IMG/VR virus record: IMGVR_UViG_3300033555_000001
Coordinates: 160,001-224,000 of that record
DNA length: 64,000 nt
Strand: one strand, 5' to 3'
Source: a virus
Taxonomy: Duplodnaviria; Caudoviricetes
Shown here: piece by piece, positions 27,884 to 59,712 of the stretch
Layout: every line of letters starts with the position of its first letter
How positions within the stretch are numbered: the first letter of the stretch is position 1
The notes under the pieces: generated by a model
What the model was told of the DNA's origin: nothing
Database searches by the model: none
What the model saw: only the letters and a program-made list of their open reading frames with translations
Made by a program: the position numbers and the translations under genes

Positions 27884-27916
27884 CCTGTAAGATCAGATAT
27901 TTAGCCCTCTATGATC
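27884..27916. repeat. 33-nt direct repeat, copy 2 (copy 1 at 28281-28313, which spans the gp46 3' end and TAAATA)
   Basis: CCTGTAAGATCAG(A/G)TATTTAGCCCTCTATGATC, 32/33 identical. Confidence 0.9.
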
Positions 27917-27934
27917 TTGATAAGTCTACGGTGT

Positions 27935-28273: not shown

Positions 28274-28297
28274 AATTCCCCCTGTAAGATCAGGTAT

Positions 28298-31970: not shown

Positions 31971-31975
31971 GCGAT
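31947..31975. repeat. 29-nt direct repeat A (second copy at 32581-32609)
   Basis: GCACCACCGCAGTACTTGCA(G/A)TGAGCGAT, 28/29 identical. Confidence 0.9.
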
Positions 31976-32455
31976 CTTCTCAATCCTAAGGCTATTTGTA
32001 AGCTAACGGAAGAGCAGTGGGGAGGTTCATACCCTATTAGTTGGGACCCTATCAAAAAAGGCATTAGTGTTGACCGAGCCGTGAAAAATACATTTGGGGG
32101 AGAAGGTGGGAGGTTTGACCCCTTTGATATGAATTTTTTTGTTGGCAACATCAGCCATCATGAAATAAAAACAACAACCACGAACTGGATTAAGCTTTCA
32201 CCAAAAGAAAAAGAGCTTGCGGATAGCCTTTTACAGCAGAAATTAGATATGCTGTACTGGATTTATTTCCAACATCAAGCCCGAGACGACTTTCAATTTA
32301 AGTGCATAGTTAGATGGAGTAAATTAACGCAAAACGATTTAATTTTCACATCACAGTACGACATGTGCAATGTTGAGCGAGAAGGTGTTTGGACAGTAGA
32401 ACCAGGTTATTGTTTCTCTTTATCCCGAGCCCTGTCAACAGCTGAACCTAATTAA
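31967..32455 (+). CDS. Hypothetical protein
   Basis: 162 aa ORF whose start lies within repeat A. Confidence 0.55.
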   Translation: MSDLLNPKAICKLTEEQWGGSYPISWDPIKKGISVDRAVKNTFGGEGGRFDPFDMNFFVGNISHHEIKTTTTNWIKLSPKEKELADSLLQQKLDMLYWIYFQHQARDDFQFKCIVRWSKLTQNDLIFTSQYDMCNVEREGVWTVEPGYCFSLSRALSTAEPN

Positions 32456-32472: not shown

Positions 32473-32560
32473 TCGCTTGTTACAATATCTCATCTCCTGT
32501 CACCTACGTCGGGCGACAAAATAGGAGAAAATTAAATGACTCAAGAAAATCAAACTGCAA
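32473..32560. repeat. 88-nt direct repeat B (second copy at 33251-33338): promoter, RBS hairpin and first codons of the MazG-like gene
   Basis: 81/88 identical by manual alignment. Confidence 0.9.
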
Positions 32561-32600
32561 CTGCGCTGGTGGGCGGTGGTGCACCACCGCAGTACTTGCA

Positions 32601-33224
32601 ATGAGCGATATTAATCTGATAAGAGCTTTGACAGGCAATAACCGAATTGAGCGAATTAGGCAGGCTAGGCTTGATTCAAGTTTCAATACAGTTATTGCAA
32701 TATTAAAAGAATATTGCAGTGCAATACCAGCCTTTTCAGCGGACACAATTGGTCAAGAATTATTCGATGAGGTTAACAATATTGTCATCATTGCGAATTT
32801 ACAGCCAGACCAAAAAAGATCAAAGGCTAAAAAAGAAGCTGATTTTAAGAGGGGGATGTTTTGCGAGTGCATGGTACGAGACGTGTTGCGTTTAGCACTT
32901 GCAGAAATTGGATGGAAATGCGAGTGGCCCAACGATTCTGGGCCACGTGACCTAATTCTGACTAGCCCCGCAAAAATTAGATTTTTAGTAGATGTGAAAA
33001 CAAAGGCTGTTTTACCTGGCAAATCTGGAACTGTTACGTGTTCAGAGTCTGAGGCAAGAGCGCTGGTTAACGGCATGTACAAAAATGAAAAAATAGATGA
33101 AATACTATTAGCAATATTTAACATAAGCACAGCTGGAATTTATACATTTGCGGACGTTCGCCGCGCAAAAACAGAAGCATGGAGTCTGAGTGAGGATGGC
33201 TGCAGCTGGTATTTTGAATTTTAA
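32601..33224 (+). CDS. PD-(D/E)XK nuclease-like protein
   Basis: GPRDLIL...LVDVKTK resembles a PD-(D/E)XK motif. Confidence 0.45.
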   Translation: MSDINLIRALTGNNRIERIRQARLDSSFNTVIAILKEYCSAIPAFSADTIGQELFDEVNNIVIIANLQPDQKRSKAKKEADFKRGMFCECMVRDVLRLALAEIGWKCEWPNDSGPRDLILTSPAKIRFLVDVKTKAVLPGKSGTVTCSESEARALVNGMYKNEKIDEILLAIFNISTAGIYTFADVRRAKTEAWSLSEDGCSWYFEF

Positions 33225-33313
33225 CCCAAACATCGCATAACCGGCAAATTTCGCTTGTTACAATATCTCATCTCCTGTCACCTGTGTTGGGCGACTGAAT
33301 AGGAGAAAATTAA

Positions 33314-33799
33314 ATGACTCAAGATAATCAAACTACAATTATGCCAGCAGCCAATTTAGAAGCACCTCAAATCAATACTGACTGGGTTGCTGACATTGCT
33401 GACATGCATACGAAATTCGGCGTTAACACAGTTATCAGAAAACTTAATAAAGCAGACTTGGCCAAGTTCTTAAAATTTCGCGTTGATTTCTTGCAAGAAG
33501 AACTAGACGAGATGATTGCAGCCAGCGAAGACCCTGACTACAAAAAGCCAGACGCTCGTGGCGACGACATTGTCGATGCGCTGATTGACATTTGCGTTGT
33601 TGCAATTGGCACCATGAACGCGTTTGATGTTGATGCGCATACAGCATGGGCCAGAGTCCACAGTAAAAACATGGAAAAGAACGCTGGCGTCAATCCCAAT
33701 AGGCCCAACGAATTAGGACTGCCGGATCTGATCAAACCAGCTGGTTGGACTAGCCCTACACATGCGGATAATGTTGGCTTGTTAAGCAAGCTGTTTTAA
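33314..33799 (+). CDS. MazG-like NTP pyrophosphohydrolase
   Basis: FLQEELDEM, DDIVDALIDICVVAIG and RVHSKNMEK motifs. Confidence 0.8.
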   Translation: MTQDNQTTIMPAANLEAPQINTDWVADIADMHTKFGVNTVIRKLNKADLAKFLKFRVDFLQEELDEMIAASEDPDYKKPDARGDDIVDALIDICVVAIGTMNAFDVDAHTAWARVHSKNMEKNAGVNPNRPNELGLPDLIKPAGWTSPTHADNVGLLSKLF

Positions 33800-41707: not shown

Positions 41708-42610
41708 ATGATTAAGCACTATTATTTTGACAACCAGCTTCGCGCGTATTTGCTGCAGTTTATTGCAATTTTCCAGGGGCTGCAAGTCCGTACTGGCCGC
41801 GGTGAGTGCAATGAAGAGCAGTACATCACTGTGCCGTGCGTAGTTGGAAGTAAAGACCGCGTGGTGGCTGCGTTGTTTGCTGGCAATACCCAGAATCGGG
41901 TCTTTAGCTTGCCAACAATGGCAGTACACATGACTGGGCTGTCAGTTGCAAATGATCGGCGAAAAGTTCAGGCACACGTAGATCAACGCGTAATAATGAA
42001 AGCGGGCGGCCAATTTCCAAATGATCTCACGGTTGCAAAGCGCGCCATGCCTATACCGTATGATATGACGGTTGAGCTAGCGCTCTACGCCTCTAATACG
42101 CAGCAACTGCACCAATTACTGGAACAAATTTTAGTCCTGTTTAATCCTGACATTCAGATTCAGAAAAGCGATGGTATGCTGGACTGGACAAAAATTACCA
42201 GTGTAGAGCTGACAGATATTTCAAATGAAGAGAATTATCCAAGCGCCACACAGAACAGAGCTATTGTCTGGACGCTGTCATTTAAGCTGCCAATTTTTCT
42301 AAGCGTGCCAATGGGCATAAAAGACGATGTGGTTCGCCGAGTGATTATTCAAATTGGTTCAATGGACACAATGGTTGTTAACGAAGTAGACGCAAACGGA
42401 GAATTAACGCCGTTTGGTGCGCCACTGGCCAAGATTGATTTTGACACTAGGGAAGTACCTGCGCCAGAAGAGTGCACCTACAATCAAGGAGCAACTCCAG
42501 AAGGTGAGTTAAATGATACTTGGTACAGCGCAGTAACCGCTACAACGCGTCGTTGGGACGGCAGCGCTTGGGTTGTTCTTGAACAGTACTTGCCACCACC
42601 ACGAGCATAA
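41708..42610 (+). CDS. Tail terminator / sheath stabiliser (gp15-like)
   Basis: YYFDNQLRAYLLQF, ITVP, PIPYDMTVELALY and EQILVLFNP motifs. Confidence 0.9.
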   Translation: MIKHYYFDNQLRAYLLQFIAIFQGLQVRTGRGECNEEQYITVPCVVGSKDRVVAALFAGNTQNRVFSLPTMAVHMTGLSVANDRRKVQAHVDQRVIMKAGGQFPNDLTVAKRAMPIPYDMTVELALYASNTQQLHQLLEQILVLFNPDIQIQKSDGMLDWTKITSVELTDISNEENYPSATQNRAIVWTLSFKLPIFLSVPMGIKDDVVRRVIIQIGSMDTMVVNEVDANGELTPFGAPLAKIDFDTREVPAPEECTYNQGATPEGELNDTWYSAVTATTRRWDGSAWVVLEQYLPPPRA

Positions 42611-44626: not shown

Positions 44627-46471
44627 ATGGCAACACTCGTTTCCCCAGGTGTTTCAGTCTCAGTCACCAACGAGAGCTTCTTTCTTCCAGTAACTGCACC
44701 TACCGTGCCGGTTATCTTTATCGCCACAAAGAGCGGTAAACTGCAACCAAACGGTATTACCCCCGCAGCTGGTACTCTAGAATTTGGCGTCGTTCGTACG
44801 GTTACTTCGGTCCCACAGTCTGTTGAGCTCTTTGGCGTGCCCCATTTCCGCAACGATGTTTCGGGTAATGAGTTCCACGGTGATGCTCGCAATGAATATG
44901 GTCTCTTGGCGCTAAACCAATTTTTAGCAGCTGGTAATCGCGCGTACGTTGTTCGCGCAAATATTGACCTAACCGACGAACCAGAAACATTCATGTCGCT
45001 GGGAACACCAGGCTTGGTTGGCTCATCTGTTTCGTACAACGGCATTGGCGATGGTTCAATTGAATCAATCACAGCGGTAAGTAATGCCGTGAAGCCTCAG
45101 CTGTTTGCAGTACTGTTTACTTCACCAACGTCCTTTTCGGTTACAGGCGCACTGTCTGGCTACATTGGCGCTGGTAACGTAGATGCTGCCTTTACCTCGT
45201 CTAAAATTAACTTTACTGTTATGTCTGGCGCAGTGCCATTTAGCGCTGGCGACACATTCACGTTTAACATGGCCCATATGGCTGTTGCTGCAGGCAGCAA
45301 TACTGGTAATGGTTCTGTTGTTTCACTAACAGTTGATACACTTGCGCTGCCTGAAACTATTACTGTTCTGATGACATCAGCGTCTGCGTTTCAGGTTAAC
45401 AGCACAGTTTCAATGATTGAAAACGGCGTTGTCGGTTCGGCATTTGATAACAACCGCGTTAACTTTACTGTTCAGGCTGGCACCGTTCCATTTGTTGCTG
45501 GTGATGAGTTCACAATCACTGTAAGTTCAGTAACTGTAAGTGCTCCGCTGGGCGCTAACGATGCAGCAAAACGTGTTGCTATTGTTACCGCACTGCAAGC
45601 CGCAATTAACAGCAATGGTGATGTCCGGTCGGAACTCTATGAGTTTAACTTGATTGCTTGCCCAGGTTATCCAGAAGTTGCAGATGAATTACATTCGCTG
45701 AGCGCGTCAACAAAGCAAGAGTCTTTGGTTATTGCTGACACCCCGTGTGATAAATCACCGGATCAAGTTGCACAGTGGGCACTAACATCTGCTCGTGCTG
45801 CAGGCGAAGACATTGCGTATTACTATCCATGGTGCCTGACATCTAACCTTGACGGCCGCGACGTACTTGGCGCACCATCGGGTACTGCTCTTCGCACCAT
45901 AGCGTTCAGTGATCAACAAGGTTATGTATGGTCTGCTCCAGCCGGAGTATCAAATGGTGTGGTGTCTGGCGTATCTCGTCTGGCCTATATAACTGGCACC
46001 AAGGGTACTGCAACCACGCTGATTGAGACTAATCTAAATCAGGGTCAACGCGATAACCTGTACGAATACGATAAAAACATTAACCCAATCTCGTTCTTCC
46101 CGGGCCGTGGATTTATGTTGTTTGGACAGAAAACTTCAGCACCAGCAGCAAGTGCTCTTGACCGCATTAACGTTGCACGACTGGTTATGTACTTGCGTCG
46201 TACACTGCGCAAAGGTGCGTTGCCATTTGTTTTCCAACCAAACGATCAAATCACACGTGATAACTTGAAAGCCGCAGCCGATGGTATCTTGAATGATGTA
46301 TTGACTAAGCGTGGATTATATGATTTTGCCACTCAGTGCGATACTAGCAACAACACTGCGGTAAGAATAGATCGAAACGAGCTGTGGTTAGACGTTGCAA
46401 TCAAGCCAACGAAAACAGCCGAATTTATTTATATCCCGATCCGTGTTGTTAGTACTGGTGCAAATATCTAA
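44627..46471 (+). CDS. Tail sheath protein (gp18-like)
   Basis: MATLVSPGVSV, KNINPI, ALDRINVARL and PTKTAEFI motifs. Confidence 0.97.
   Translation: MATLVSPGVSVSVTNESFFLPVTAPTVPVIFIATKSGKLQPNGITPAAGTLEFGVVRTVTSVPQSVELFGVPHFRNDVSGNEFHGDARNEYGLLALNQFLAAGNRAYVVRANIDLTDEPETFMSLGTPGLVGSSVSYNGIGDGSIESITAVSNAVKPQLFAVLFTSPTSFSVTGALSGYIGAGNVDAAFTSSKINFTVMSGAVPFSAGDTFTFNMAHMAVAAGSNTGNGSVVSLTVDTLALPETITVLMTSASAFQVNSTVSMIENGVVGSAFDNNRVNFTVQAGTVPFVAGDEFTITVSSVTVSAPLGANDAAKRVAIVTALQAAINSNGDVRSELYEFNLIACPGYPEVADELHSLSASTKQESLVIADTPCDKSPDQVAQWALTSARAAGEDIAYYYPWCLTSNLDGRDVLGAPSGTALRTIAFSDQQGYVWSAPAGVSNGVVSGVSRLAYITGTKGTATTLIETNLNQGQRDNLYEYDKNINPISFFPGRGFMLFGQKTSAPAASALDRINVARLVMYLRRTLRKGALPFVFQPNDQITRDNLKAAADGILNDVLTKRGLYDFATQCDTSNNTAVRIDRNELWLDVAIKPTKTAEFIYIPIRVVSTGANI
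46409..46471. repeat. 63-nt direct repeat: last codons of the sheath gene (second copy at 48465-48527)
   Basis: 58/63 identical by manual alignment. Confidence 0.95.
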
Positions 46472-46493
46472 GTGATATAATAACGTTATAAAC

Positions 46494-46517
46494 AAAGGCA
46501 GATAGTATCTGCCTTTT
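46494..46517 (+). terminator. Terminator after the sheath gene
   Basis: AAAGGCAGATA-G-TATCTGCCTTTT. Confidence 0.7.
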
Positions 46518-46561
46518 CTTTGTCATTATTTTTGAATATTACGCTACCTTAAAAAGTCATT

Positions 46562-47989
46562 ATGCCAACATGTAAAATATGCGGATACGCTCATGAGATA
46601 ATGATTCACTTTACTCATATCAGAAAACATGGTATGACGGTTCAGGAATATAAGCTAAAATTTCCCGGAGCCGCGCTGCGTGTGCAGAGCGAAGAATCTA
46701 AATTAAAAATGTCGGCCTCTAAAACAGGAAAGCCTTCTGGACTAAAGGGGAAAATCAGGTCTGAAGAACACTCTAAAAATATATCGGCCGCGCTAAAAGA
46801 AGCTTACTCTTCAGGAAAAATACAACATTGGAACTCAGGTAACACTACTCCACTGTGCGTTAAGGAAAAAATTGCGCAGGGAAATAGAGGCACAATAAAT
46901 GCTGGAAACATAAAGCAAAAGTTAAAAAAGCAGGAGAGAATTAAAGCCGGTGCCATAGCGTTTGGCTGTGAAGTGTTAAGCTGTGATGTAGAAGAACGCA
47001 CCACAGTAAAGTGCCTTGAATGTAAACACGTGTTTAGTTTTACAAACCAAATATTTTATGAAACTCGTTTAGAAAAGACTGGAAAGCTATGCCCGTCTTG
47101 TCAACCGCGAATTACATATTCTTCTGCGGGTGAGCAAGAGCTATTAAATTTCATCAAGTCAGTTTATGCTGGAATAATAATACCCAATGACCGAGGCGCT
47201 CTTGGAGGAAAAGAATTAGACGTTTATTTACCTGAACTCAAGATTGCATTTGAGTACACGGGGTTGTATTGGCACGCTGAAAAACAGAACCCAATAAACA
47301 AGCACTTGTTGTGGAAGAGAGACTTTGCGTTCAATCAAGGAGTCGAACTAATTACTGTGTTTGAAGATGAGTGGCACGATAAACAAGACATTGTTAAGTC
47401 TAGAATTATGAACATGCTAGGTCTTCAGGGTTTTAAATCTGCGGCCAGAAAATTAAAAATAGGTGTTCCATCCGTTAAAGAGAAGAATTTATTTCTGACT
47501 GAGAATCACTTGCAGGGTAGAGATACAAGTTCTGACTGGGCTGCGCTTATGGATGGTGGCGAGATCGTGTGCATTGCCACTTTTAAGAAAACTAGTATAT
47601 CAAAAGGCGGTTCTGGTGATCAGTGGGAATTAAGCAGGTTTGCATCAAAATTAAACACCCAGGTGCAGGGCGGAGCCAGCAGGCTTGTAAGCTGGTTTGT
47701 GCGCAAATACAAAGCAGACCTGGTGTCTTACGCTGATTCTAGATGGAGCACTGGAAAACTTTATAGAACTATGGGATTTGATTTTATCCATCGCTCTTCT
47801 CCAAGCTATTGGTACTTGTTAGATGGTTACAAACGACGCGTGCACCGCTCTGCGTTCATGAAACATCGACTTGTAAAATGTGAAGAGGATAAAGCTTTTA
47901 CGGAATGGGAACTTGCTCAGCAAGCAGGCATGGATCGCATTTGGGATTGCGGCACAACAAAGTGGCTGTTAAAGTACAATCCAAATTAA
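46562..47989 (+). CDS. Hef-like homing endonuclease with GNAT-like C-domain
   Basis: ELDVYLPELKIAFEYTGLYWH; CLEC/CPSC zinc ribbon; ELSRFAS; SYADSRWSTGKLY; IWDCG. Confidence 0.75.
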   Translation: MPTCKICGYAHEIMIHFTHIRKHGMTVQEYKLKFPGAALRVQSEESKLKMSASKTGKPSGLKGKIRSEEHSKNISAALKEAYSSGKIQHWNSGNTTPLCVKEKIAQGNRGTINAGNIKQKLKKQERIKAGAIAFGCEVLSCDVEERTTVKCLECKHVFSFTNQIFYETRLEKTGKLCPSCQPRITYSSAGEQELLNFIKSVYAGIIIPNDRGALGGKELDVYLPELKIAFEYTGLYWHAEKQNPINKHLLWKRDFAFNQGVELITVFEDEWHDKQDIVKSRIMNMLGLQGFKSAARKLKIGVPSVKEKNLFLTENHLQGRDTSSDWAALMDGGEIVCIATFKKTSISKGGSGDQWELSRFASKLNTQVQGGASRLVSWFVRKYKADLVSYADSRWSTGKLYRTMGFDFIHRSSPSYWYLLDGYKRRVHRSAFMKHRLVKCEEDKAFTEWELAQQAGMDRIWDCGTTKWLLKYNPN

Positions 47990-48033
47990 GTGTACACTTT
48001 TTACTGAATAAAGTATTATATCCATCCCAGCGC

Positions 48034-48041
48034 TATAAATA
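48034..48041 (+). promoter_or_regulatory. Perfect T4-type late promoter TATAAATA
   Basis: Exact match to the T4 late consensus, upstream of 48077. Confidence 0.75.
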
Positions 48042-48076
48042 AGTATGTTCAACGTTTACACACCAAAAGGAACACA

Positions 48077-48430
48077 ATGACATACATCGCTGAATTAAAT
48101 CGTACACGGCATCTTGCTGGCTTACAGCCGCTGTCAGAGGCTCAAACGTCAAAAATCTCTTCAGAGCTTAATGAAGCGTTTATCGAGCTAGATTGGGCTC
48201 TTGGTAATACGCCTAAAGAAGTTGAAAAGCTCGTTAAAGCAGCTGCAGAAAAAGAAGACTTAAAAGCAGAAATCATCACAATGGACGGCCCGGGCGGTGG
48301 CAACCCGCTTGTAAGATTCTCAGGTAAAAAAGCTAACATTAAGAAGTTTCTAGTAACATATTGCCATGGCGACGAAACTGAAGCAGATTTCATGATGAAT
48401 GACATTGGTCATAAGCAAGGGACTAGATAG
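48077..48430 (+). CDS. Putative head-internal protein with LNRxRxLAG leader
   Basis: MTYIAELNRTRHLAGLQPLSE; late promoter and AAGG Shine-Dalgarno upstream. Confidence 0.6.
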   Translation: MTYIAELNRTRHLAGLQPLSEAQTSKISSELNEAFIELDWALGNTPKEVEKLVKAAAEKEDLKAEIITMDGPGGGNPLVRFSGKKANIKKFLVTYCHGDETEADFMMNDIGHKQGTR

Positions 48431-48548
48431 GTATCTTTTTGCGGACCAACGTACTTATTCACGTACGAAAACATCCAAATTTATTTATATCCCAATCCGC
48501 GTTGTTAGTACTGGCGCAAATATCTAAAGCAGCAATTAAGCAATAATG

Positions 48549-48575
48549 AAAGGGACCCGAAGGTCCCTTTTTATT
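48549..48575 (+). terminator. Intrinsic terminator after the orphan sheath-end copy
   Basis: AAAGGGACC-CGAA-GGTCCCTTT followed by a T tract. Confidence 0.8.
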
Positions 48576-48581
48576 TGAGCT

Positions 48582-48878
48582 TTATTCTCTAGTTTCAACA
48601 ACCGTGCGTTTAACTCTGCTAATCATAACGGTTGCTTTAGTGCCACTTTTGATAGCTGCTCGTGTGAAATGAGATCTAATATCAGAAGCCCAGCCACCCC
48701 ATACTGGGCCGTATTCTACGTCCATTGAGATTGTGTTCTGGTTATTTGGTCCTGGTATAATCGTTTTCTTACGGACAGTGATTGTCCCAGGTAAAAAGCT
48801 TTCAATTTGCTTGAGAAGCTCGAGTTTGCCGCCCTGAATTTGTACTTCGGCTGTGAGGAGACCCTTGGTCTTTTGCAT
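48582..48878 (-). CDS. Hypothetical protein
   Basis: AGGAG Shine-Dalgarno upstream. Confidence 0.55.
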   Translation of the reverse strand: MQKTKGLLTAEVQIQGGKLELLKQIESFLPGTITVRKKTIIPGPNNQNTISMDVEYGPVWGGWASDIRSHFTRAAIKSGTKATVMISRVKRTVVETRE

Positions 48879-48981
48879 GTTAATGCTCCTGATTAGAATG
48901 CTGCAGCAGGTCGCCGCAGTAAAGGAATTCTAAGCTAGTATGATTTTTCAGTAATATTAGGAATCAGGTTAGGCGACAAAG

Positions 48982-49776
48982 TTAGGAAAGTATTGTCTTT
49001 AATCTGACTAACTCCTGCTTTTGTTTGTGCTTCCACAAGAGCTCCCAAAACTCATGAATTACAATTCCCTGCTCTGCAGCGTATGCAAGTTTATCAGCTT
49101 CGCGTGACCCATCGCCTGGGTGCCAGTATTCACCGTGGTATTCAAAACCAATTTTTAAATCTGGAAGATAGATGTCAATTTCTTTTGGCTTTATCGCTTG
49201 GCGATCATTCACAATAATCCGACCAGTATATAGTGCTTTCACGGCCTCATACAGTTCACCTTGCCCCCGAGATACATGGCAGGACGGACACCAAATACCA
49301 GTCACGCGAGTAAACGGCCGGCTAAAAACTTCACCGCATATATGGTGCCACTTGTATTCGTTTTGCATGCCAGGAATAATCTCATCAACTGGTGTAATGC
49401 CCTTTACTGCAAGTTTATCAAGCTTAGCCTGCGCACGATTGTTGAAGTGCGCGCTTTTCATGTCATAAGAAGTCTGCGCTTTCCATTCAGGATCTGCCCA
49501 GAGCTTTTCGTGACGTATAGATTTTTCTGGAGCTAATAATGCTTGAGCACACTTCATTGAACACACTTTTCTGTAACCCACTGTGTAATTTATCCAGTTT
49601 GTTAGCTTTCCGCAGTAACATGTTGGCCGTATGTTTAAGACGTTCCAGGCCTTCTCGGAAATGCTATTACCATGATATTCATTCAACCATATTAGGCGCT
49701 CAGCGTTGCGCCATTTACCAGCACAATATTTGCCATCTTGGAACAAGGCAACGATGAGTTCAGTTTGTTTTGTCAT
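48982..49776 (-). CDS. Short Hef-like endonuclease (no GNAT-like C-domain)
   Basis: CYCG...GYRKVCS; EIDIYLPDLKIGFEYHGEYWH. Confidence 0.7.
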   Translation of the reverse strand: MTKQTELIVALFQDGKYCAGKWRNAERLIWLNEYHGNSISEKAWNVLNIRPTCYCGKLTNWINYTVGYRKVCSMKCAQALLAPEKSIRHEKLWADPEWKAQTSYDMKSAHFNNRAQAKLDKLAVKGITPVDEIIPGMQNEYKWHHICGEVFSRPFTRVTGIWCPSCHVSRGQGELYEAVKALYTGRIIVNDRQAIKPKEIDIYLPDLKIGFEYHGEYWHPGDGSREADKLAYAAEQGIVIHEFWELLWKHKQKQELVRLKTILS

Positions 49777-49881
49777 TCGCTATTTAGAGTAATTTTTGAT
49801 TGAAACCTTGTAATCTGTAGATAAACCCATAAATACACTGAAGCTGCTCAAGCTGTACAAACCTTAATAGGAGTTATCAAA

Positions 49882-50475
49882 TTGGCAACATTATCGAATT
49901 TCGGAATTCCCGGCGCAGGTTCGGGAATCCTTCACCCAAAAATGCGTAATAAATGGAGGGTGACATTTCAGGATATTAGTCGCCTAGTATCTGGCGCAAA
50001 CAGCCGTAACCTTACAATGCAGGCAGTTACTGTTAGCCGCCCACAAATTGAATTTGAAGAAGTTGCAATTCACCGCTACAATTCAACTGCTTATATTGCC
50101 GGCAAGCACACATGGTCACCAATGAGTTTGACGGTAGACGATGATATTACTGGTCTAGCATCAAAAGTTGTTAAGGGCCAACTTGAAACACAGCAGCGCC
50201 TTGTTGGTGTTGACTTGGACGGCCGCTGGTTGAATACTGCAGCTACTGGTTCAGACTATAAATTTGGTGTTAAGCTTGAGCAATTAGACGGCGATGAGGG
50301 TGTTGTTGAATCGTGGATCCTTGAAGGCGTAATGATTCAGGCTGCCGATTTTGGTGAAGGCGATTATTCTTCTTCAGAGGCTATGACAATTCAGCTAACG
50401 CTGCGTTTTGATCACGCGCGCTGTATTGACGCTGGTGAGGGTTATGGAAGCGCGTTAGGCGGAAACGTTTCTTAG
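49882..50475 (+). CDS. Tail tube protein (gp19-like)
   Basis: TTG start; VSRPQIEFEEV, AGKHTWSPM and IQLTLRFD motifs. Confidence 0.9.
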   Translation: MATLSNFGIPGAGSGILHPKMRNKWRVTFQDISRLVSGANSRNLTMQAVTVSRPQIEFEEVAIHRYNSTAYIAGKHTWSPMSLTVDDDITGLASKVVKGQLETQQRLVGVDLDGRWLNTAATGSDYKFGVKLEQLDGDEGVVESWILEGVMIQAADFGEGDYSSSEAMTIQLTLRFDHARCIDAGEGYGSALGGNVS

Positions 50476-50487
50476 TAATTTTTTAAA

Positions 50488-50512
50488 TTTAAAGGGCCTG
50501 CTTTTTGCAGGC
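50488..50512. repeat. 25-nt direct repeat of the tube-gene terminator (second copy at 50830-50854)
   Basis: 23/25 identical; only the downstream copy keeps the full AAAGGGCCTG/CAGGCCCTTT stem. Confidence 0.75.
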
Positions 50513-50524
50513 TTTTATTGGATC

Positions 50525-50812
50525 TTGGAGAATAAATTGAATCTTGTTGAAACATTAAACAGAGCACGCGAGCTTGCCGGAATGGAGCCGCTGTCAGAAG
50601 CTGCAGCCAAAAAAATATCTAGCCCGTCATATAAAATTACATGGGAGGGTTATCCAAATAATCCTAAGCCAGAAACTCATGGCATTGAGTATTTTACAGA
50701 TGACCTGGCATTTGACAATGATGATCGTAATAAAATTAAAGATCTCGGAGTTGGCGACAAACATGTTATGGCTGGTCCTATGGACTCCGTCACGGTTGTT
50801 CGGATAAAGTAA
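50525..50812 (+). CDS. Putative head-internal protein with LNRxRxLAG leader
   Basis: ...VETLNRARELAGMEPLSE. Confidence 0.55.
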   Translation: MENKLNLVETLNRARELAGMEPLSEAAAKKISSPSYKITWEGYPNNPKPETHGIEYFTDDLAFDNDDRNKIKDLGVGDKHVMAGPMDSVTVVRIK

Positions 50813-50933
50813 TCTAGTTAAAAGTAGTTTTTAAAGGGCCTGTTTCTTGCAGGCCCTTTTAGTATGCGCAGTAGATTAATACACACGCTTGAGTATAGCT
50901 AAATATCTTATTACTTTATAGCCTGGAAATATA

Positions 50934-51245
50934 ATGAAACTTAGCGAAATTATTGGCGAGTCAGCGGTTAGTTACACGGTTCAGCCGACAAAACGATTTT
51001 GGCTGGTATTTGCCGAGCCCACATCCTTTAAGCAGTTAACACAGGATAAAAAATTCCTGGCGCACGCCGGCCCGCACACTACTTTTTTAGACGTTTCAGA
51101 TGTTGAAGATGTTAAACTGTCTCCTGGCGAAAATAAGTGGAATGCTATGAAGCGGCTTTATAGTAATGACGAAGATGAAATCACTTGCTCCAACTCTGGT
51201 GTTCCAACAGAATGGGTGTGTCTTGCAATCAACGTGTCCATCTAA
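50934..51245 (+). CDS. Putative head-internal protein
   Basis: Leader MKLSEIIGE; late promoter upstream. Confidence 0.55.
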   Translation: MKLSEIIGESAVSYTVQPTKRFWLVFAEPTSFKQLTQDKKFLAHAGPHTTFLDVSDVEDVKLSPGENKWNAMKRLYSNDEDEITCSNSGVPTEWVCLAINVSI

Positions 51246-51247
51246 AA

Positions 51248-52537
51248 ATGCCCGACATCTCAAAATTAGTTAAAGTTGCCGGTATTGATGCCGAGAGAAC
51301 GGCCACCGAGCTGTTCGGCATTGCCGTGGAGGACTTTGCGGCCAAGCCACTGAATGCACTATTAAAGGGTGCATTAGGTGGGCCTGAGAATCCGCCGGTG
51401 AACCGCAACGATGGATCGTGGTATGCAACCTCGTACGCCGCAAGCCAGGCTAACTCACTGTTTCGCCCAAAGCTAAAGTTCTTATTTCGCGTTGAATTCT
51501 TGTTTAAGCCTGAAATTTTAGAGCAATACCAGGCACAAACAGCCGCGTGGAAAAATAACTTTACGTTCCTAATTAAGTCAGTCGATCGCCCTAAGGTTGA
51601 CTTTGAATACGAAGAAATCAATCAGTACAATTTTAGAACAAAAGTTCTAAAGATGATCAAGCACCGAGAGCTCACCATGACCTTCTCGGACGACGTTGGA
51701 AATACAGTGTATGAATTTTTTAGATTCATGCTCATGGTGCACTCTCCAATTACCCGACGCTCAGCTGGTTCCTCGCACAACATTGCGGACTATACTTCCT
51801 CTTCCAGCACCGGAAATGGTATGTTATTCTCTGGAAATCTGGGCAACTTAGAAGACAGCGCCAGCCGTGGCGTGCTTAACACTGACGTTGGTAATGCGAT
51901 TCAGGCAATTAAAATTACTCAGATGTTTGTACAGCCGGGCTCGGCTCAGCATGATCTTGATACTGGCGCAAAAGAAGTCTCGTTTATCTTTATTAACCCG
52001 CGTATGGTTTCTTTTGATCTTGATGATTTGAACCATGAGACCAGTGAAGCAAACTTGTTTACTATGCAGTTTGATTACGACTCAATGGTGCTCACTGACG
52101 CCAGATTGCTGCAGGCCCTGCCACCTGAAAAATCAATGCCACCAGTAGGCACTGCTCCTGGAGAAGCCGCACCGACTGGTCGAGCTCCTGGAGATCAAAA
52201 TCCAGAGGGTAATAATAATCCTTATACCAAGCTGCTGTCGGGAGTTGCTGCCAGAGCAGCACAACGCATCACTAGCGAAACAATTGGCCGCCAACTGCGC
52301 CGCGTGCCGGGGTTAGGATCAGTATCAGATGTACTTGGCGGGCTTGTGCAGGGGATTACGCGTGACCGTGTAGCCGGGCTTGGGTCAGCGCTTAATCAGT
52401 CTTTTGCCAGACCAAGTCGCGATGTTGTTTCTGATAACTCAACCGCCGGCCGTGACAGCAGCACCTTTGTTACCTCACGTGGCGGATTTGGCACTGATCA
52501 ACCAAGCGTAGACTCAATAGAAGAATCGGGAACATAA
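51248..52537 (+). CDS. Tube-like baseplate protein (gp19/gp54 paralog)
   Basis: RPKLKFLFRVEF, IKSVDRPKVDFE, LTMTFSDD and FTMQFDYD motifs. Confidence 0.75.
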   Translation: MPDISKLVKVAGIDAERTATELFGIAVEDFAAKPLNALLKGALGGPENPPVNRNDGSWYATSYAASQANSLFRPKLKFLFRVEFLFKPEILEQYQAQTAAWKNNFTFLIKSVDRPKVDFEYEEINQYNFRTKVLKMIKHRELTMTFSDDVGNTVYEFFRFMLMVHSPITRRSAGSSHNIADYTSSSSTGNGMLFSGNLGNLEDSASRGVLNTDVGNAIQAIKITQMFVQPGSAQHDLDTGAKEVSFIFINPRMVSFDLDDLNHETSEANLFTMQFDYDSMVLTDARLLQALPPEKSMPPVGTAPGEAAPTGRAPGDQNPEGNNNPYTKLLSGVAARAAQRITSETIGRQLRRVPGLGSVSDVLGGLVQGITRDRVAGLGSALNQSFARPSRDVVSDNSTAGRDSSTFVTSRGGFGTDQPSVDSIEESGT

Positions 52538-52983
52538 TGGCCGGAACACGCAAAACATTTCAGGGAAGATTTATGCCTAAGAACCCAGGTAAATACTTGG
52601 GCAACGTTGGGAAAATAATTTTTCGATCAGGTTGGGAACTGCGAATGTTTCAGTGGTTTGATGCTACCCCATCTGTTTTACAGTGGGCAAGCGAAGAGTT
52701 TTCAGTTCCATATCTGTCACCACTTGATAACAAAGTGCACCAGTACTATCCGGATGCGTTTGTCATCTATAAAGATAAGTTTGGAAATTTGCAAAAAGAA
52801 ATTATTGAAATTAAACCGTACAAAGAAACAGTGCTTGGCCCAAAATCAACAGAGCGTGACAAGTTAGCGTGGGTAGTTAATCAGGCTAAATGGAAAGCTG
52901 CCGCACTGTTTGCTGAGCAACAGGGCTCTAAGTTCCGAGTAGTAACAGAAAAGTCTATGTTCGCCAATGGAAAAACAAAATGA
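52537..52983 (+). CDS. Head completion nuclease (gp4-like, TnsA-type)
   Basis: FMPKNPGKYLG, FRSGWE, WASEE, YYPD and EIKP motifs. Confidence 0.9.
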   Translation: MAGTRKTFQGRFMPKNPGKYLGNVGKIIFRSGWELRMFQWFDATPSVLQWASEEFSVPYLSPLDNKVHQYYPDAFVIYKDKFGNLQKEIIEIKPYKETVLGPKSTERDKLAWVVNQAKWKAAALFAEQQGSKFRVVTEKSMFANGKTK

Positions 52984-52984
52984 T
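52970..52984. repeat. 15-nt exact direct repeat at the stop/start junction (second copy at 53449-53463)
   Basis: GAAAAACAAAATGAT flanks ORF 52980-53462. Confidence 0.6.
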
Positions 52985-53462
52985 TCTTTTGCGAGAACTG
53001 TTGGGCAGCCCTCTCGAATATACTTGGGTACAGCAACACGATGCTTACTGGAGAGCAGAATTTTTTGTTAATGGAGTTAGTTACTCAGTTATTGCAAGTG
53101 AAGAAAATAATTTTAAAGATGAAGGCGGAAATGATGCCGTGTATTGGGAAATATCGTTTGCGCAAACTGAAAAATCATTGACTGGAACTAAAACTAATTC
53201 TGGTGGAGAGTTACAAGTTTTTTCAACCGTTCAAGCAGCGGTGTTTGATTTCTTAGATCAGAAAAAACCCGATTGGATTGGCATAAGCTCAACTAAAAAA
53301 GAAGAGAACAGATTTAATTTATACTTACGAATGATCAACCGGTTAACGAGTAAACTTAACGGTATGGGTTATTCTTTGCATTCGTGCCCAACTTATGGAG
53401 ACACGTCTATCCAGCAATATCTGGATCAATATGAAACTTATTGCATGAGAAAAACAAAATGA
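52980..53462 (+). CDS. Putative head-internal protein, paralog of 55890
   Basis: Leader MILLRELLG; WEISF...NSGGELQVFSTV. Confidence 0.6.
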   Translation: MILLRELLGSPLEYTWVQQHDAYWRAEFFVNGVSYSVIASEENNFKDEGGNDAVYWEISFAQTEKSLTGTKTNSGGELQVFSTVQAAVFDFLDQKKPDWIGISSTKKEENRFNLYLRMINRLTSKLNGMGYSLHSCPTYGDTSIQQYLDQYETYCMRKTK

Positions 53463-53905
53463 TACCTTCAAAATTTAGTAATCCTCTTGATAGTCTTTTT
53501 GACATTGAAGCGGGTGATCGTGACGAGATGCAGGAATACGTCTCCACAACTGAAAATGAGATAACGGCACAGGCCCCTGCTGTAGTGGAAAAAGATCAAG
53601 AGGACATTGATACTGATCGTAAAATAGACGAGGTGTATGATACTGCGCTTAACTCATTTCAAGAACTAGTAGCGTACACGCAGATTATTGAGCCGCGCTA
53701 CGCAGCCCGCAATGCGGAAGTTGCTGCCACGTACTTAAGCCTGGCACTGCAGGCTGCTACTTCAAAGGCTAAGTTAAAAACCGACCGCAAGCGCGTTGCA
53801 ACGTTTATTCCAGGCGGTAACAAGGTTACTAACAATACTGTTGTGTGTTCAAGAGAAGAAATTATGCGAATGATTTCTGTAGATGCTGAAGTCAAGAAGA
53901 TCTAA
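53459..53905 (+). CDS. Terminase small subunit-like (gp16-like)
   Basis: Helical EPRYAARNAEVAATYLSLAL...NNTVVCSREEIMRMI; upstream of the large terminase. Confidence 0.6.
   Translation: MIPSKFSNPLDSLFDIEAGDRDEMQEYVSTTENEITAQAPAVVEKDQEDIDTDRKIDEVYDTALNSFQELVAYTQIIEPRYAARNAEVAATYLSLALQAATSKAKLKTDRKRVATFIPGGNKVTNNTVVCSREEIMRMISVDAEVKKI
53864..53905. repeat. 42-nt direct repeat: 3' end of the small terminase-like gene (second copy at 54349-54390)
   Basis: 38/42 identical; 3 of 4 differences are synonymous. Confidence 0.9.
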
Positions 53906-53928
53906 TTATTAGACAAGGGAGATACACA

Positions 53929-54342
53929 ATGCAATTACTTCAAGAATTATTAGGTTTGCTCAAGGGGCAAAAGCAAAAAGGCAGGTTGACTGAAGCAGAA
54001 AAGACGGGCTATCAGATCAAAGTTGATTCAGCCGTTAGAGGAAATTGGAAGGATTCGCATTTGAATGCTGCTTCACTTGACGATATAGCCAGTGCGGTTT
54101 CCGCTTCACCAGTAGATGATCAGGCTCATGACAAATTTAACCTGAGCAAACTTACCACATTAGTTACAGATTTTATTGGTGTTGGGCCTGGTGGTCAAGG
54201 AACATCCTGGGAAGAAATAGACTATGACGTGGTATCCTTACAAGATGATGTGCTGAAAATTAGCTGGAGATTTTCAGGTGTAAAGCAGAGCGACACAGAA
54301 GTGGTAAAAACAGGCATGATTACAATAATGCCAGCTGAATAA
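53929..54342 (+). CDS. Putative head-internal protein
   Basis: Leader MQLLQELLG; enclosed by the 42-nt repeats. Confidence 0.55.
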   Translation: MQLLQELLGLLKGQKQKGRLTEAEKTGYQIKVDSAVRGNWKDSHLNAASLDDIASAVSASPVDDQAHDKFNLSKLTTLVTDFIGVGPGGQGTSWEEIDYDVVSLQDDVLKISWRFSGVKQSDTEVVKTGMITIMPAE

Positions 54343-54500
54343 AATAACATGCGAAAGATCTCTGTAGACGCTGAAGTCAAGAAGATTTAATTTACTAAAC
54401 AGATGTACATTAATTTAACAGATGTACATTAATGTTGCCATTAAATAACTGAGTCCTGTCTAGCCAGACTCTCTAAATACTCGACAACCTGGAGATAGCC

Positions 54501-54929
54501 GTGCAATTACTGCAAGAACTGATGAGCCTTAAGCTTAAGATTGCTGAGCCAAAACCGCGCGATCCTAATCACAAGATTCTTGCTGATAAAAAGAACGCGG
54601 CTGGTGAGCACCGTGATAAGAAGCGCGAAGAACGCAGTGGTATCTTTAAACATAGAAAAACGCAAGAAGACTTGAGCTTAGCCGAAAAGAAACCTGAAGG
54701 CGCGCCTGATTGGCACGACTCTGATGCTCCAGATGCTAATGGCAGGTTTAGAGAGTTAAGCGTAAATGCGCTTGCTGACTGGTTGATCAAAACTAGAAAC
54801 GGTGATATGCGCCGCATTAACGGTTCGTTGCAGCAACAAATAGTTTTCAATCGTAATAAAGACCCGGCGTACGCCTCAAAAATGGAACGCACTCGTGCGG
54901 CCGTAAAGAGCAAGCTCAAAAAGGATTAA
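54501..54929 (+). CDS. Basic putative head-internal protein
   Basis: GTG start; leader MQLLQELMS; late promoter upstream. Confidence 0.55.
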   Translation: MQLLQELMSLKLKIAEPKPRDPNHKILADKKNAAGEHRDKKREERSGIFKHRKTQEDLSLAEKKPEGAPDWHDSDAPDANGRFRELSVNALADWLIKTRNGDMRRINGSLQQQIVFNRNKDPAYASKMERTRAAVKSKLKKD

Positions 54930-55219
54930 TGATGACAGCCCTAGTTCCGTCAGTTCCACTGTACACACTTCATATGTCGGAAGCCGGCCAGATCCGTGCT
55001 ATTCTGACTACTGTAAAATCAATGCTTGACAATCCTAACTTCAGGCAGAATTTGATTAACTTGAACGTGGTGCAGGCAAATATTATAGAGCTGCCATATC
55101 CAATGGATTTAATTGGCCGGTTAGAAAAGCTAAGTGAATCAATTCAAGCATTTGAGACAACCGTTTCAACAATTGAAGATGGTATTCGCGGCTCACTTAA
55201 TTACCCGGTTGTCTCGTAA
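54929..55219 (+). CDS. Hypothetical protein
   Basis: Translationally coupled ORF. Confidence 0.55.
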   Translation: MMTALVPSVPLYTLHMSEAGQIRAILTTVKSMLDNPNFRQNLINLNVVQANIIELPYPMDLIGRLEKLSESIQAFETTVSTIEDGIRGSLNYPVVS

Positions 55220-55893
55220 TGCGGTTTAAAGAATTTCTTGCTGAGATGGCTGCTCCAGCGGAGCAACATCTTTCGTCCGTATATTATCACGGCACTGATG
55301 AAGCCGGTGCACAGGGAATTATGCAGCGTGGAATTGAAGCGGGCGATATTATTTTGCCAACATCAAAAAAGTCGCGCTGCCCAAGTTTAGAACCTGTTCC
55401 CGGTAAAGTGTACATCACGCCAAAAATTGGCTATGCTCAAGTTTACGCAATCGGCGGTGACATGGCTGGTTCAAATTATCGATCAACAGCCGGTCAATCT
55501 ACGCACGGTTATGTTTTTGTAATTAAAGGCAGCCAGTTAAAAGACATACAGCCAGACGAAGATAGTATTGGTGAGATGATTTGGCGGCAATTATATGAGC
55601 CTAAGGACAACAGGTTCTTAAAAACTTATGCCTATATGGCGCAGCAAATTTTAACGCCAAAACAGTTTTTAAAATTAAAAGACGGCGAATACGTAATGTA
55701 CGCGCACGTTGGAAAGAAGCTTTTAGCTAAAATGTCTGATGCGGATAAACTAGAATTCATCAACTTAGGCGCACATATTGCGCATACTGGAAATTTGCAG
55801 CCCGATGAAACCTGGAAAATAGATTTGTCTAAAATGCGAGAAATGAAACGTGACGGCTCTAACTTTTTTGAGTTGGCAGAAAAAGTAAAATGA
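55219..55893 (+). CDS. ADP-ribosyltransferase-fold protein with capsid-targeting-like leader
   Basis: MRFKEFLAE; YYHGT; KVYIT...YAQVYA; GYVFVI. Confidence 0.65.
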   Translation: MRFKEFLAEMAAPAEQHLSSVYYHGTDEAGAQGIMQRGIEAGDIILPTSKKSRCPSLEPVPGKVYITPKIGYAQVYAIGGDMAGSNYRSTAGQSTHGYVFVIKGSQLKDIQPDEDSIGEMIWRQLYEPKDNRFLKTYAYMAQQILTPKQFLKLKDGEYVMYAHVGKKLLAKMSDADKLEFINLGAHIAHTGNLQPDETWKIDLSKMREMKRDGSNFFELAEKVK

Positions 55894-57595: not shown

Positions 57596-58177
57596 ATGCA
57601 CACACATCCTGTAATAGTATATCTGCACGGGCTTAACTCTACCCGTCATTCCTTTGCATACCTGGGCCACAAGCTTGGGCACTGCGACATTAAACTAATC
57701 GATTATGATTCTCACCAACCACTGCACATGTCTATTGCGCAAGTTGCAAGACAGTTGCCGCCTGGTCGTGAACTTATTTTAATCGGGCACTCGCTGGGTG
57801 GGGTGATTGCGATGAATCTTGCGCTTGACATGCCCGAAATTGTTAGAGTTATTACTATTTCTGCACCGTTAGGTGGCTCAAGAGCGGCAACATTCTTACG
57901 CTGGTTTAGTTCAATGATGGTGGTTGGAGATATTACTCCTACTTCGCGCGCAATTACCAGAATTCAGTCTTCACTGCCCTGCCCAGTGCTTTCAATTATT
58001 TCTACTGGTGGGCACTTGCCAACATCACAAGAACAAAACGACAGCGTAGTTACTCTTAACTCGCAGCGCGCCCTTAAAGACGCGGCAAAAATTGAAATAC
58101 GCGCTAACCACTTTGAAATTCTAATGCACGACGCCACCGCTGATGCTATTTTAGCGTTTGTGCAGGAGTGCTGCTAG
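57596..58177 (+). CDS. Alpha/beta hydrolase
   Basis: YLHGLNS; nucleophile elbow GHSLGG; NDSVV; NHF. Confidence 0.85.
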   Translation: MHTHPVIVYLHGLNSTRHSFAYLGHKLGHCDIKLIDYDSHQPLHMSIAQVARQLPPGRELILIGHSLGGVIAMNLALDMPEIVRVITISAPLGGSRAATFLRWFSSMMVVGDITPTSRAITRIQSSLPCPVLSIISTGGHLPTSQEQNDSVVTLNSQRALKDAAKIEIRANHFEILMHDATADAILAFVQECC

Positions 58178-59712
58178 TGGCTAAAAACCCCAATTTAAAG
58201 CGCGCGCACGAAACAAGTGAGTTTACGCCTGAGATGGTTGTTGAATTACAGAAATGTAAAGCTGATCCAATTTACTTTATGGAGACGTATGTAAAAGTTT
58301 CTCACCCTACAAAGGGTGCAGTGCCTTTTATTTTGTACAGTTACCAAAAAGAAATGGTAATGGCAATTCACGACAATAAAGATACGGTGTTGTTGTGTTC
58401 GCGACAAATGGGAAAGACCACAGTTGCAGCTATGTACATCCTGTGGTTTGCAACGTTCTACGCTACAAAGCGCTGTGTGATTGCATCAAAAGCCATGAAC
58501 CACGCCGTGGAAATTCAATCACGTATTAAGTTCGCGTACGAAGAACTGCCGCAGTGGTTAAAGGCTGGCTGCACATTCTACAATCGCACATCAATTGAAT
58601 TTGATAACAAGTCCGTAATTATCTGCGAAGCCACGTCTGAAAAAACCGGCCGTGGTGGCTCACCATCTATCTTGTTTATTGACGAGATCGCCTTTATTTC
58701 AAAGCGCATTCAAGATGAGATGTGGGCGTCTATTGCGCCCTCGCTGTCTACTGGCGGTAAGTTAATTATGACGAGCACGCCAAACGGTGACTCAGACTTG
58801 TTTGCACAGCTGTGGCGAGACGCGTTAAGTGGCGTAAACAGCTTTAAGGCCGTGCAGTACCTGTGGTGGATGCACCCTGACCGTGATCAGGCGTACTATG
58901 ATGAGATGAAGGGTAAGTTAGGCGCGGTAAAAACGCTCCAAGAATTAGACTGTCAATTTTTGTCCAGCGATGCGTTATTGATTAATTCTATTAAACTGAA
59001 CTCAATGCGTTGGAAGGCTCCACTCTGGGAATCTTTAGGCTTTAAGTTCTGGGTACCAGAAGAATCATTGGGCGGTCGCGATAAAATTTACTTGGTTAGC
59101 ATGGATCCCGCTACCGGCGGAGGTGCGGACTTTACGACAATTGAAGTATTTGAATTTCCAAGCATGAACCAAGTTGCGGAGTATCGAACAAATGACGTTA
59201 ACATCCCGCTTACGTACGGTAAACTTTGTTGGCTGCTTAAAAAGCTAACCGAGCAAACTAACGGCGGACGTGCTGAGGTACTGTGGACTTTTGAGCGTAA
59301 TGGTATTGGTGAAGCCGTATCAGCGCTGTACTACAACGATGAACATCAAATTGAAGAAGCTGAGCTGATAAGCGATCATCCAACTAAATTTGGAGTGTTT
59401 ACGAGCGGCCGCCAAAAAGTGCTCTCAGCACTACAGCTTAAAACAATGGTTGAAAAAGTAAGCGAGGGTGGACTGCAAATTAATAGCGAAGTGCTGATTC
59501 ATGAGCTGAAGCACTATATTTCTAAGGGTGGTGGGTACGCCGCAAAGACTGGTTATACTGATGACTGCGTCGCCGCAACTCTTGGAATCATGAGACTCTT
59601 GAAGCGGCTGTCTGAGTACAACGAAGATGCTTTTGACCGCGTAAACGAATACGTGGATCCCGAAGCTTCTATGGATGATTCCGACGACCCCATGCCCATG
59701 GCGTTTTTGTAG
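58177..59712 (+). CDS. Terminase large subunit (gp17-like)
   Basis: SRQMGKTT, FIDEIAF, TSTPNG, DPATG and DDCV motifs; GTG start 8 nt after AGGAG. Confidence 0.97.
   Translation: MAKNPNLKRAHETSEFTPEMVVELQKCKADPIYFMETYVKVSHPTKGAVPFILYSYQKEMVMAIHDNKDTVLLCSRQMGKTTVAAMYILWFATFYATKRCVIASKAMNHAVEIQSRIKFAYEELPQWLKAGCTFYNRTSIEFDNKSVIICEATSEKTGRGGSPSILFIDEIAFISKRIQDEMWASIAPSLSTGGKLIMTSTPNGDSDLFAQLWRDALSGVNSFKAVQYLWWMHPDRDQAYYDEMKGKLGAVKTLQELDCQFLSSDALLINSIKLNSMRWKAPLWESLGFKFWVPEESLGGRDKIYLVSMDPATGGGADFTTIEVFEFPSMNQVAEYRTNDVNIPLTYGKLCWLLKKLTEQTNGGRAEVLWTFERNGIGEAVSALYYNDEHQIEEAELISDHPTKFGVFTSGRQKVLSALQLKTMVEKVSEGGLQINSEVLIHELKHYISKGGGYAAKTGYTDDCVAATLGIMRLLKRLSEYNEDAFDRVNEYVDPEASMDDSDDPMPMAFL

Follow-up and report, generated by a model that had tools for sequence, protein, structure and literature searches.

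A duplicated small-terminase gene end encloses an accessory reading frame in a T4-related giant phage and is probably a recombination scar

Here we analyze a locus of a T4-related giant myovirus at which the 3' end of the putative small-terminase gene is present twice, with a single compact open reading frame (ORF), called X in what follows, enclosed between the two copies and a second small gene, called K, lying behind them. The phage is known from IMG/VR record IMGVR_UViG_3300033555_000001, a metagenome assembly of 310,728 base pairs (bp) with an estimated completeness of 87%, and the window that we refer to throughout is the whole stretch of 64,000 nucleotides (nt) that makes up bases 160001-224000 of that record. 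It is the gene content of the window that identifies its owner as a T4-related giant myovirus. The parts of the locus are, from left to right:

53459-53905, plus strand: small-terminase-like gene of the gp16 type, 148 amino acids, with a match to phrog_445
53864-53907, plus strand: repeat copy 1, coding, that is the last 13 codons of the terminase gene with its TAA and a following TT
53912-53949, plus strand: start signals of X, namely GACAA, the Shine-Dalgarno (SD) sequence GGAGATA, and ATG with six leader codons (MQLLQEL)
53929-54342, plus strand: ORF X, 137 amino acids (MQLLQELLG...), a leader followed by a domain of unknown function of about 115 amino acids
54343-54348, plus strand: joint, six bases (AATAAC) between the TAA of X and the second repeat copy
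54349-54392, plus strand: repeat copy 2, the orphan tail, 13 codons from ATG to TAA with no SD sequence in front
54393-54482, plus strand: spacer, present in the second unit only (90 nt, against 4 nt in the first)
54483-54521, plus strand: second copy of the start signals, namely GACAA, SD sequence GGAGATA, and GTG with six leader codons, fused in frame to the ATG at 54522
54501-54929, plus strand: gene K, 142 amino acids counted from the GTG, an N-terminal module (..KPRDPN..NAAG.HRDKK..) followed by a variable C-terminal module

The two copies of the terminase end stand in direct orientation, 485 nt apart, and agree at 38 of 42 positions (53864-53905 against 54349-54390), or at 40 of 44 if the two T after the stop codon are counted. 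The longest exact run common to both is 17 nt. When the 42-mer is compared with the window and with the whole 310,728-bp genome on either strand, the next best match reaches only 24 of 42; there are just two copies genome-wide, and a chance origin of the repeat is therefore excluded. One of the four differences changes an amino acid (ATG to AAG, methionine to lysine, at codon position 2), and the remaining three (ATT to ATC, GAT to GAC, ATC to ATT) are synonymous third-position transitions. A first-pass annotation, made by a model from the letters alone, had reported both this identity and the three synonymous changes out of four, and our sequence comparison agrees with it. The list of ORFs likewise bears out its statement that only the MQLLQELLG frame lies between the copies. 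Namely, the sole real ORF there is 53929-54342, the remaining listed frames being short, out of frame or antisense. Two antisense frames on the minus strand, 53698-53895 and 54222-54380, both begin MTSASTEI; these are the two repeat copies read backwards and are not evidence of genes. As for the extent of the repeat, the 90 nt upstream of each copy resemble each other no better than shuffled sequences do (P 0.59), and the left edge is therefore sharp, falling at an in-frame ATG of the terminase gene. A leftward extension, in which the 3' part of X would match the terminase gene upstream of copy 1, was rejected by this same comparison with shuffles; the 3' part of X is instead homologous to the C-terminus of X's own family.

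Toward the right, the duplication is longer than the gene end. The SD sequences and leader codons of X and K are identical in 24 of 29 aligned columns, a score reached by none of 1000 shuffles, and the duplicated unit thus comprises 53864-53949 in its first occurrence (unit 1) and 54349-54521 in its second (unit 2). The word cassette, used for the inserted element in the first-pass annotation, is in this respect too narrow, as the unit also holds an SD sequence and seven leader codons that now head K. The similarity between X and K is confined to the leader, and a simple tandem gene duplication was rejected because the two are not paralogues beyond it. When K homologues from eight relatives are aligned with the window protein, their starts fall at about its residue 8, which corresponds to the ATG at 54522. 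To judge from this alignment, native K probably started at 54522, and its translation seems at present to begin with the GTG at 54501, behind a copied SD sequence, which gives K a copied leader that it lacks in relatives.

The spacer of unit 2 (54393-54482) is unique in the genome. It contains a 17-nt motif, AACAGATGTACATTAAT, twice (54398-54414 and 54417-54433, 19 nt apart), and each occurrence includes the palindrome ATGTACAT, so that a protein-binding site is possible. A scan for promoters and terminators found nothing resembling either in 53864-53950, in 54349-54521 or in the spacer, the predicted RNA fold of 54330-54510 is not unusual (z -0.81), and a comparison with Rfam gave sub-threshold chance hits alone. 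The idea that the spacer is a T4-type late promoter was dropped, given that the motif TATAAATA is not enriched in the genome (11 copies).

What is the state of the second copy? Read as a frame, it consists of 13 uninterrupted codons, in frame with X, its ATG standing 6 nt past the TAA of X; no SD-like sequence precedes this ATG. The terminase gene itself carries a C-terminal motif, REEI[ML][RK][ML]I.[VI]D, which is conserved in the 120 homologues listed, and the change from methionine to lysine in the orphan falls at a position where all of these 120 have methionine or leucine. In other words, a change at an invariant position and a missing SD sequence point to one copy having been released from selection, even though the copies differ at just four sites. 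The orphan tail is, on this comparison, most likely a non-coding relic whose decay has begun. Its frame could be shared with X by chance, for which the expectation is one in three; we read it in this way because the analogous orphans at 48465 and at genome 231138, described below, are out of frame with the ORFs that they follow. Third codon positions of the terminase tail vary freely among relatives, and therefore nothing beyond coding is conserved in it. Both copies end in AEVKKI followed by the stop, an ending found complete in none of the 119 other listed homologues, of which the nearest, P0060, ends in ...DGEVKKI. Because no other listed homologue has this ending in full, the orphan should come from this lineage or from a near relative of it, and not from a distant phage.

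The differences between the copies carry some information on how they arose. Taken alone, three synonymous changes out of four are not significant: by our own arithmetic, P is about 0.05 under free decay and about 0.19 under a copy made in place. Pooling the three repeats of this genome that have differences inside codons gives 7 synonymous and 3 non-synonymous changes. Random substitution in a simulation yields a synonymous share of 23-28%, and free decay of both copies is rejected (P 0.001-0.006); a model with one constrained and one decaying copy yields 37-44% and is borderline (P 0.03-0.09). These figures favour, without proving it, a divergence of the copies while both were functional alleles, ahead of the event that brought them together. 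The first-pass annotation had proposed that the orphan was recently coding and that it either came from a related phage or is the displaced original end. The ending common to both copies upholds a coding origin within the same lineage; between a separate allele and an in-place copy, the counts lean towards the former.

Related loci show that the position immediately behind the small-terminase gene is a variable slot. We compared 17 distinct loci (L002-L013, L016-L019, L060 and L062-L064, some of which are identical copies). In none of them does the terminase tail recur, the best second match being 21-25 of 42, and none has a micro-ORF of this kind; a micro-ORF conserved in relatives was what the first-pass annotation had named as speaking against its proposal, which on this point is not refuted. 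In L004-L006, the terminase stop and the start of the K homologue are 25 nt apart, which represents the empty state, with the qualification that these loci are distant (65% identity) and show the state of the slot, not the exact parent. The empty allele, which the earlier annotation suggested looking for, is accordingly found as an arrangement in distant relatives, and the exact empty form was not seen in them. Elsewhere the slot is filled in various ways: L002, L003 and L018 have one unrelated gene in it (626 amino acids in L002, 278 in L003 and L018), L016 and L019 open it with a phospholipase-A2-like gene, followed in L019 by more genes before K, and in L007-L012 genes with an M[RI].FK[EQ][FY]L leader come immediately after the terminase gene. 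As a whole, the interval between the small and the large terminase gene (terS-terL) is a mosaic, in which K, a DUF5856 gene, the gene at 56951 and an alpha/beta hydrolase gene act as anchors and variable small genes lie between them.

The naming of the terminase gene calls for a comment. The match of ORF 53459-53905 to phrog_445, "terminase small subunit", is weak and full-length (E 1.3e-4, residues 7-145 of 148), and the same family is matched by 14 of 25 members of the family to which this ORF belongs, at best with E 5e-8. There are 465 homologues at E<1e-10. No Pfam family matched it, and a profile of its family gave no meaningful hit among PDB sequences. The order of genes, with tube, gp4-like head closure, this ORF, 4.3 kb of small genes and then the large terminase, is the same in relatives. 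From the profile matches and this order, we assign the ORF to the gp16-type small terminases with moderate confidence. The neighboring structural and packaging genes used here as landmarks are:

18427-19041, minus strand: T4-type prohead protease (PF03420 Peptidase_S77, E 9e-24, 81.5 bits)
41708-42610: sheath stabiliser
44627-46471: tail sheath
51185-52537: tube
52537-52983: gp4-like head closure
58168-59712: large terminase

The cultured phages with the most similar large terminase are Ralstonia phage RsoM2USA (48%) and, next, Xanthomonas phage XacN1 (40%); Xoo-sp13, Stenotrophomonas, Atu_ph07 and PA5oct-type phages come after these.

The terminase end is not the only gene end in this genome to have been duplicated. 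Comparing the genome with itself, we found at least five further cases in which the 3' end of a gene is followed by a compact ORF and then by an orphan copy of that end, 6-34 nt past the stop codon of the ORF. The repeats concerned, together with one nested upstream repeat, are:

28281-28313 and 27884-27916, minus strand: 32 of 33 identical; last four codons, stop and 18 nt of spacer of gene 28298-30037
31947-31975 and 32581-32609: 28 of 29 identical; copy of the end of ORF 31686-31970
32473-32556 and 33251-33334: 84-nt repeat covering the stretch upstream of gene 33314 and the gene's first seven codons, nested with the 31947 pair
46409-46471 and 48465-48527: sheath-end repeat of 63 nt, 58 of 63 identical, with three synonymous and two non-synonymous differences
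52970-52989 and 53449-53468: gp4-end repeat, a copy of 15-20 nt
genome C1:230791-230820 and 231138-231167: perfect, 30 of 30; end of ORF 230311-230820, enclosing a 90-amino-acid ORF, 230848-231120

Several of these loci deserve a closer description. The repeat at 27884-28313 encloses an ORF of 112 amino acids (27935-28273) with the leader MILKQLLQITEAK; both this ORF and the second copy are absent in 33 relatives of the locus, the next gene lying 26-69 nt away in four of them and farther in others. Between 31947 and 33334, two unrelated genes, gene 1 (31967-32455) and gene 2 (32601-33224), each stand between a left and a right flank, one such set following the other, and the duplicated ends meet at 32536-32604 in a chimeric frame of 22 codons with an ATGA overlap with the start of gene 2. 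On its sequence, this region has the look of a tandem stack of two alleles of a single slot, and such a double-flank structure is the outcome expected of unequal crossing-over between genomes with different slot alleles. The sheath-end repeat encloses a homing-endonuclease-like gene (46562-47989; phrog_3339, E 3e-85) and an ORF of 117 amino acids. Directly upstream of the terminase gene, ORF 52980-53462 (160 amino acids, leader MILLRELLG) owes its last codons, its stop and its ATGA overlap with the terminase start to the copy of the gp4 end; in L003, L010, L012 and L018, the gp4-like and terminase genes abut or overlap, with nothing between them. Scars of this kind thus sit at genes of many kinds, and a terminase-specific cause is therefore not needed. 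Apart from these pairs, the self-comparison is dominated by two dense arrays of short direct repeats at genome C1:140388-141750 and 255679-258750, with periods of about 54-78 nt and multiples thereof.

Turning to the enclosed gene, X has no Pfam or PHROG family, and its hits in the Atlas all stayed under useful scores. An exhaustive HMMER search gave 21 homologues, with a common domain of about 115 amino acids that ends in ITIMPGN. Where this domain stands alone, it occurs in other genomic contexts and is mostly preceded by a leader of the form M.LL[KQ]ELLAL.E[SA] or M.FKEFL. Four relatives encode a protein with the N-terminal module of K in front and this domain as its C-terminal part, and they do so in the same terS-terL island; in L063, the K-X fusion gene lies directly 3' of the terminase gene. 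X is therefore not foreign to this island. What is more, the C-terminal module of K differs by relative, being the X domain, the domain seen in the window, or none at all. We conclude from these comparisons that X is one of the interchangeable modules of the island, with the leader motif at module boundaries. In relatives L060, L062, L063, L064, L002 and L004, the N-terminal module of K reads ..LKPRDPN..NAGGPMRDKK..KHK. Several relatives have a motif of the FK[EQ]F[LM]E type inside K, between the N-terminal module and the alternative C-terminal domain, and in L004, K ends just after this motif. Such a position suggests that the internal leader motif marks a processing site between modules.

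The leader is not confined to this locus either. A start of the form M..[LF].[EQ][LF][LIM] is found in 13 ORFs of the genome, six of which are grouped around the terminase gene. The prohead protease gene is followed directly by another gene with a leader, an ORF of 180 amino acids starting MILRELIALTEA (both within 17888-19041, minus strand), which may be a core or scaffold component. By analogy with T4, we infer that the leader targets X and K to the phage head. The T4 capsid targeting sequence (CTS) is MKTYQEFIAE, and leaders of the MQLLQEL type resemble it. As with this sequence, we find an N-terminal motif with a hydrophobic-x-Glu site on otherwise unrelated proteins, and the phage encodes a prohead protease; unlike it, the leaders here are of two types (LLQELL and FKEFL), and the motif is also found inside proteins of relatives. 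The internal proteins of T-even phages are highly diverse apart from their conserved CTS (reviewed in PMC3012670), and here, too, diverse proteins have a short leader in common.

How, then, did the second terminase end come to lie behind X? We think it likely that the repeat is a recombination scar that placed X between the small-terminase gene and the resident K, within a hypervariable cargo island. As would be expected of a scar left by insertion with duplication, the flanking direct repeats stem from the end of the intact gene next to them, and an empty arrangement exists in relatives. As regards mechanism and direction, recombination would have put X, with a complete terminase end on its left, in front of a segment starting 42 nt upstream of the terminase stop; the incoming segment would have run on through spacer, SD sequence, leader and K, with a single non-homologous joint at 54343-54348. 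One way in which this could happen is unequal crossing-over between two co-infecting relatives, with X or K behind the same junction. The tail of unit 2 would then be left as a relic, while its SD sequence and leader would serve K. We lean slightly towards such an exchange between relatives over a template switch or a duplication made in place within one genome. The same structure would result if a small circle with the tail and X were taken in by a single crossover.

Several observations weigh against this reconstruction. Neither the parent alleles nor the exact empty form nor a form with X only was seen, and no relative exceeds 71% protein identity. Namely, the closest homologue of the small terminase among 5.8 billion proteins is 71% identical, nothing closer being present in the collections searched, and it is for lack of a closer relative that the copies are not assignable to lineages. 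The 90-nt spacer, with its palindrome present twice, does not fit this account unless the parents differed in their spacers or a later insertion added it. The excess of synonymous changes rejects an in-place duplication at best narrowly (P 0.03-0.09). Finally, the repeat begins exactly at an in-frame ATG, and the intact frame of the orphan leaves room for a micro-ORF. Searches at the DNA level added no relatives: a search of 53400-54950 against 50,697 phage records gave no match, and neither did a degenerate pattern of the 13-codon tail in viral_contigs or a shorter pattern (the last nine codons and the stop) in metagenome_contigs, the window's own record perhaps being excluded from both of these collections.

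Several other explanations of the two copies have to be considered at this point. One is that they form a pair of DNA sites for the small terminase, similar to pac. There is a precedent in T4, whose preferred pac site is a 200-bp sequence at the 3' end of gene 16. Amplifications that depend on gp16 arise around this sequence, and the protein is believed to synapse two pac-type sites and to promote amplification around them (PMC3012670). The likeness is real, in that here, too, a short 3' sequence of a terminase gene occurs twice, in direct orientation and near packaging genes. The pair in T4, on the other hand, flanks the large-terminase region and is linked to the control of packaging, whereas the one described here flanks an accessory ORF and not the terminase genes. 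In addition, at least five non-terminase genes of the same genome show a similar duplication of their ends, third positions of the tail are free, and the second copy occurs in none of the 17 related loci. We therefore regard a pac-like pair as very unlikely. In another explanation, a homing endonuclease would have cut the DNA, and X would have been copied in when the double-strand break was repaired with the help of homology on just one side. T4-type phages are known to spread flanking DNA through endonuclease-driven break repair (PMC4122927), and in this very genome, the endonuclease-like gene 46562-47989 lies inside the analogous repeat of the sheath end. That said, X matches no nuclease family, no endonuclease ORF is present in 53400-55000, and four other repeats of the genome are likewise without an endonuclease gene. 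This route also strikes us as quite improbable.

It is somewhat harder still to believe in a translated orphan, a micro-ORF (MRKISVDAEVKKI) at which ribosomes would re-initiate six bases past the stop of X and which would yield either a peptide or a device for passing ribosomes on. It does have an ATG, stays open up to a TAA, begins 6 nt past the TAA of X and is in the same frame, and the chimeric frame at 32536-32604, with its ATGA overlap, indicates that remnants of this sort can retain translational coupling. Against this, it has no SD sequence, there is no such frame in relatives, and its lysine replaces methionine at the most conserved position of the parent motif. Coupling would not be served either, given that the next gene begins 108 nt past the stop and has a strong SD sequence of its own. 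The least probable explanation, to which we give hardly any weight, is an assembly artefact, in which two strain variants of one locus would have been strung together. What speaks for it is that the record is a metagenome assembly and that the stretch is contained in a single sequencing run, labelled as an ice metagenome. In the Logan assembly of the likely source run, however, one contig of 48.9 kb, at depth 24, spans 46000-55500 with zero differences from the window and with no other joint; this assembly is independent as an assembly, yet both assemblies draw on the same reads. The joint between X and the orphan needs real reads, and the copies have at most 17 identical bases in a row, which is below the usual k-mer sizes. 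In the contigs of this single run, neither another joint nor an empty allele nor any variant was seen, an outcome that has no bearing on rare forms.

A recombination scar next to X can be compared with two known situations. In T4-related phages, elements called PeSLs, which combine a sigma70-type early promoter with a stem-loop terminator, bracket small ORFs in hyperplastic regions, and recombination between them is held to insert, delete and swap ORFs; inverse PCR has demonstrated mini-circles (Arbiol et al. 2010, PMC2839356; Comeau et al. 2014, PMC4122927). Our case is alike in that a compact ORF sits in a variable slot of a T4-related myovirus, between direct repeats of 44 nt. It is unlike in that the repeat consists of the coding end of a core gene together with an SD sequence and leader codons, and contains no site resembling a promoter or terminator. 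Moreover, the motif is not dispersed, as each slot duplicates the end of its own gene. The other situation is the insertion-duplication with an orphan 3' gene end that is familiar from e14 or phage 21 in icd of E. coli. There, as here, one finds an intact gene, inserted DNA and a dead second 3' end, the incoming DNA bringing or regenerating the end of the gene. The difference is that the locus analyzed here has no integrase or attachment (att) site and concerns a single ORF of 414 nt in a phage of the lytic type, and that its duplicated unit includes start signals, which are reused by the next gene.

The scar is, in this sense, a new example of a known process. Going one step further, one could speculate that a core-gene end, a ribosome-binding site and leader codons together make up a portable recombination joint for head-targeted cargo modules, that is a counterpart of the PeSL within coding sequence, and that the at least six duplications are footprints of an active shuffling, which stacks, deletes and fuses modules, possibly via small circles. 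We offer this as a tentative idea, which we ourselves consider rather unlikely to hold.

The locus illustrates, as a clean case from nature, how a lytic giant phage can gain a gene beside an essential one without breaking it, the old end staying behind. In this uncultured phage family, the interval between the two terminase genes emerges as an island of small leader-bearing genes, whose products are probably packaged in the head, and whose modules stand alone, fused or stacked depending on the relative. If it is true that a regular mechanism shuffles these modules, this would explain how the proteins that such phages presumably inject are renewed, and the scars would give a simple sequence signature by which recently acquired cargo genes could be recognized.

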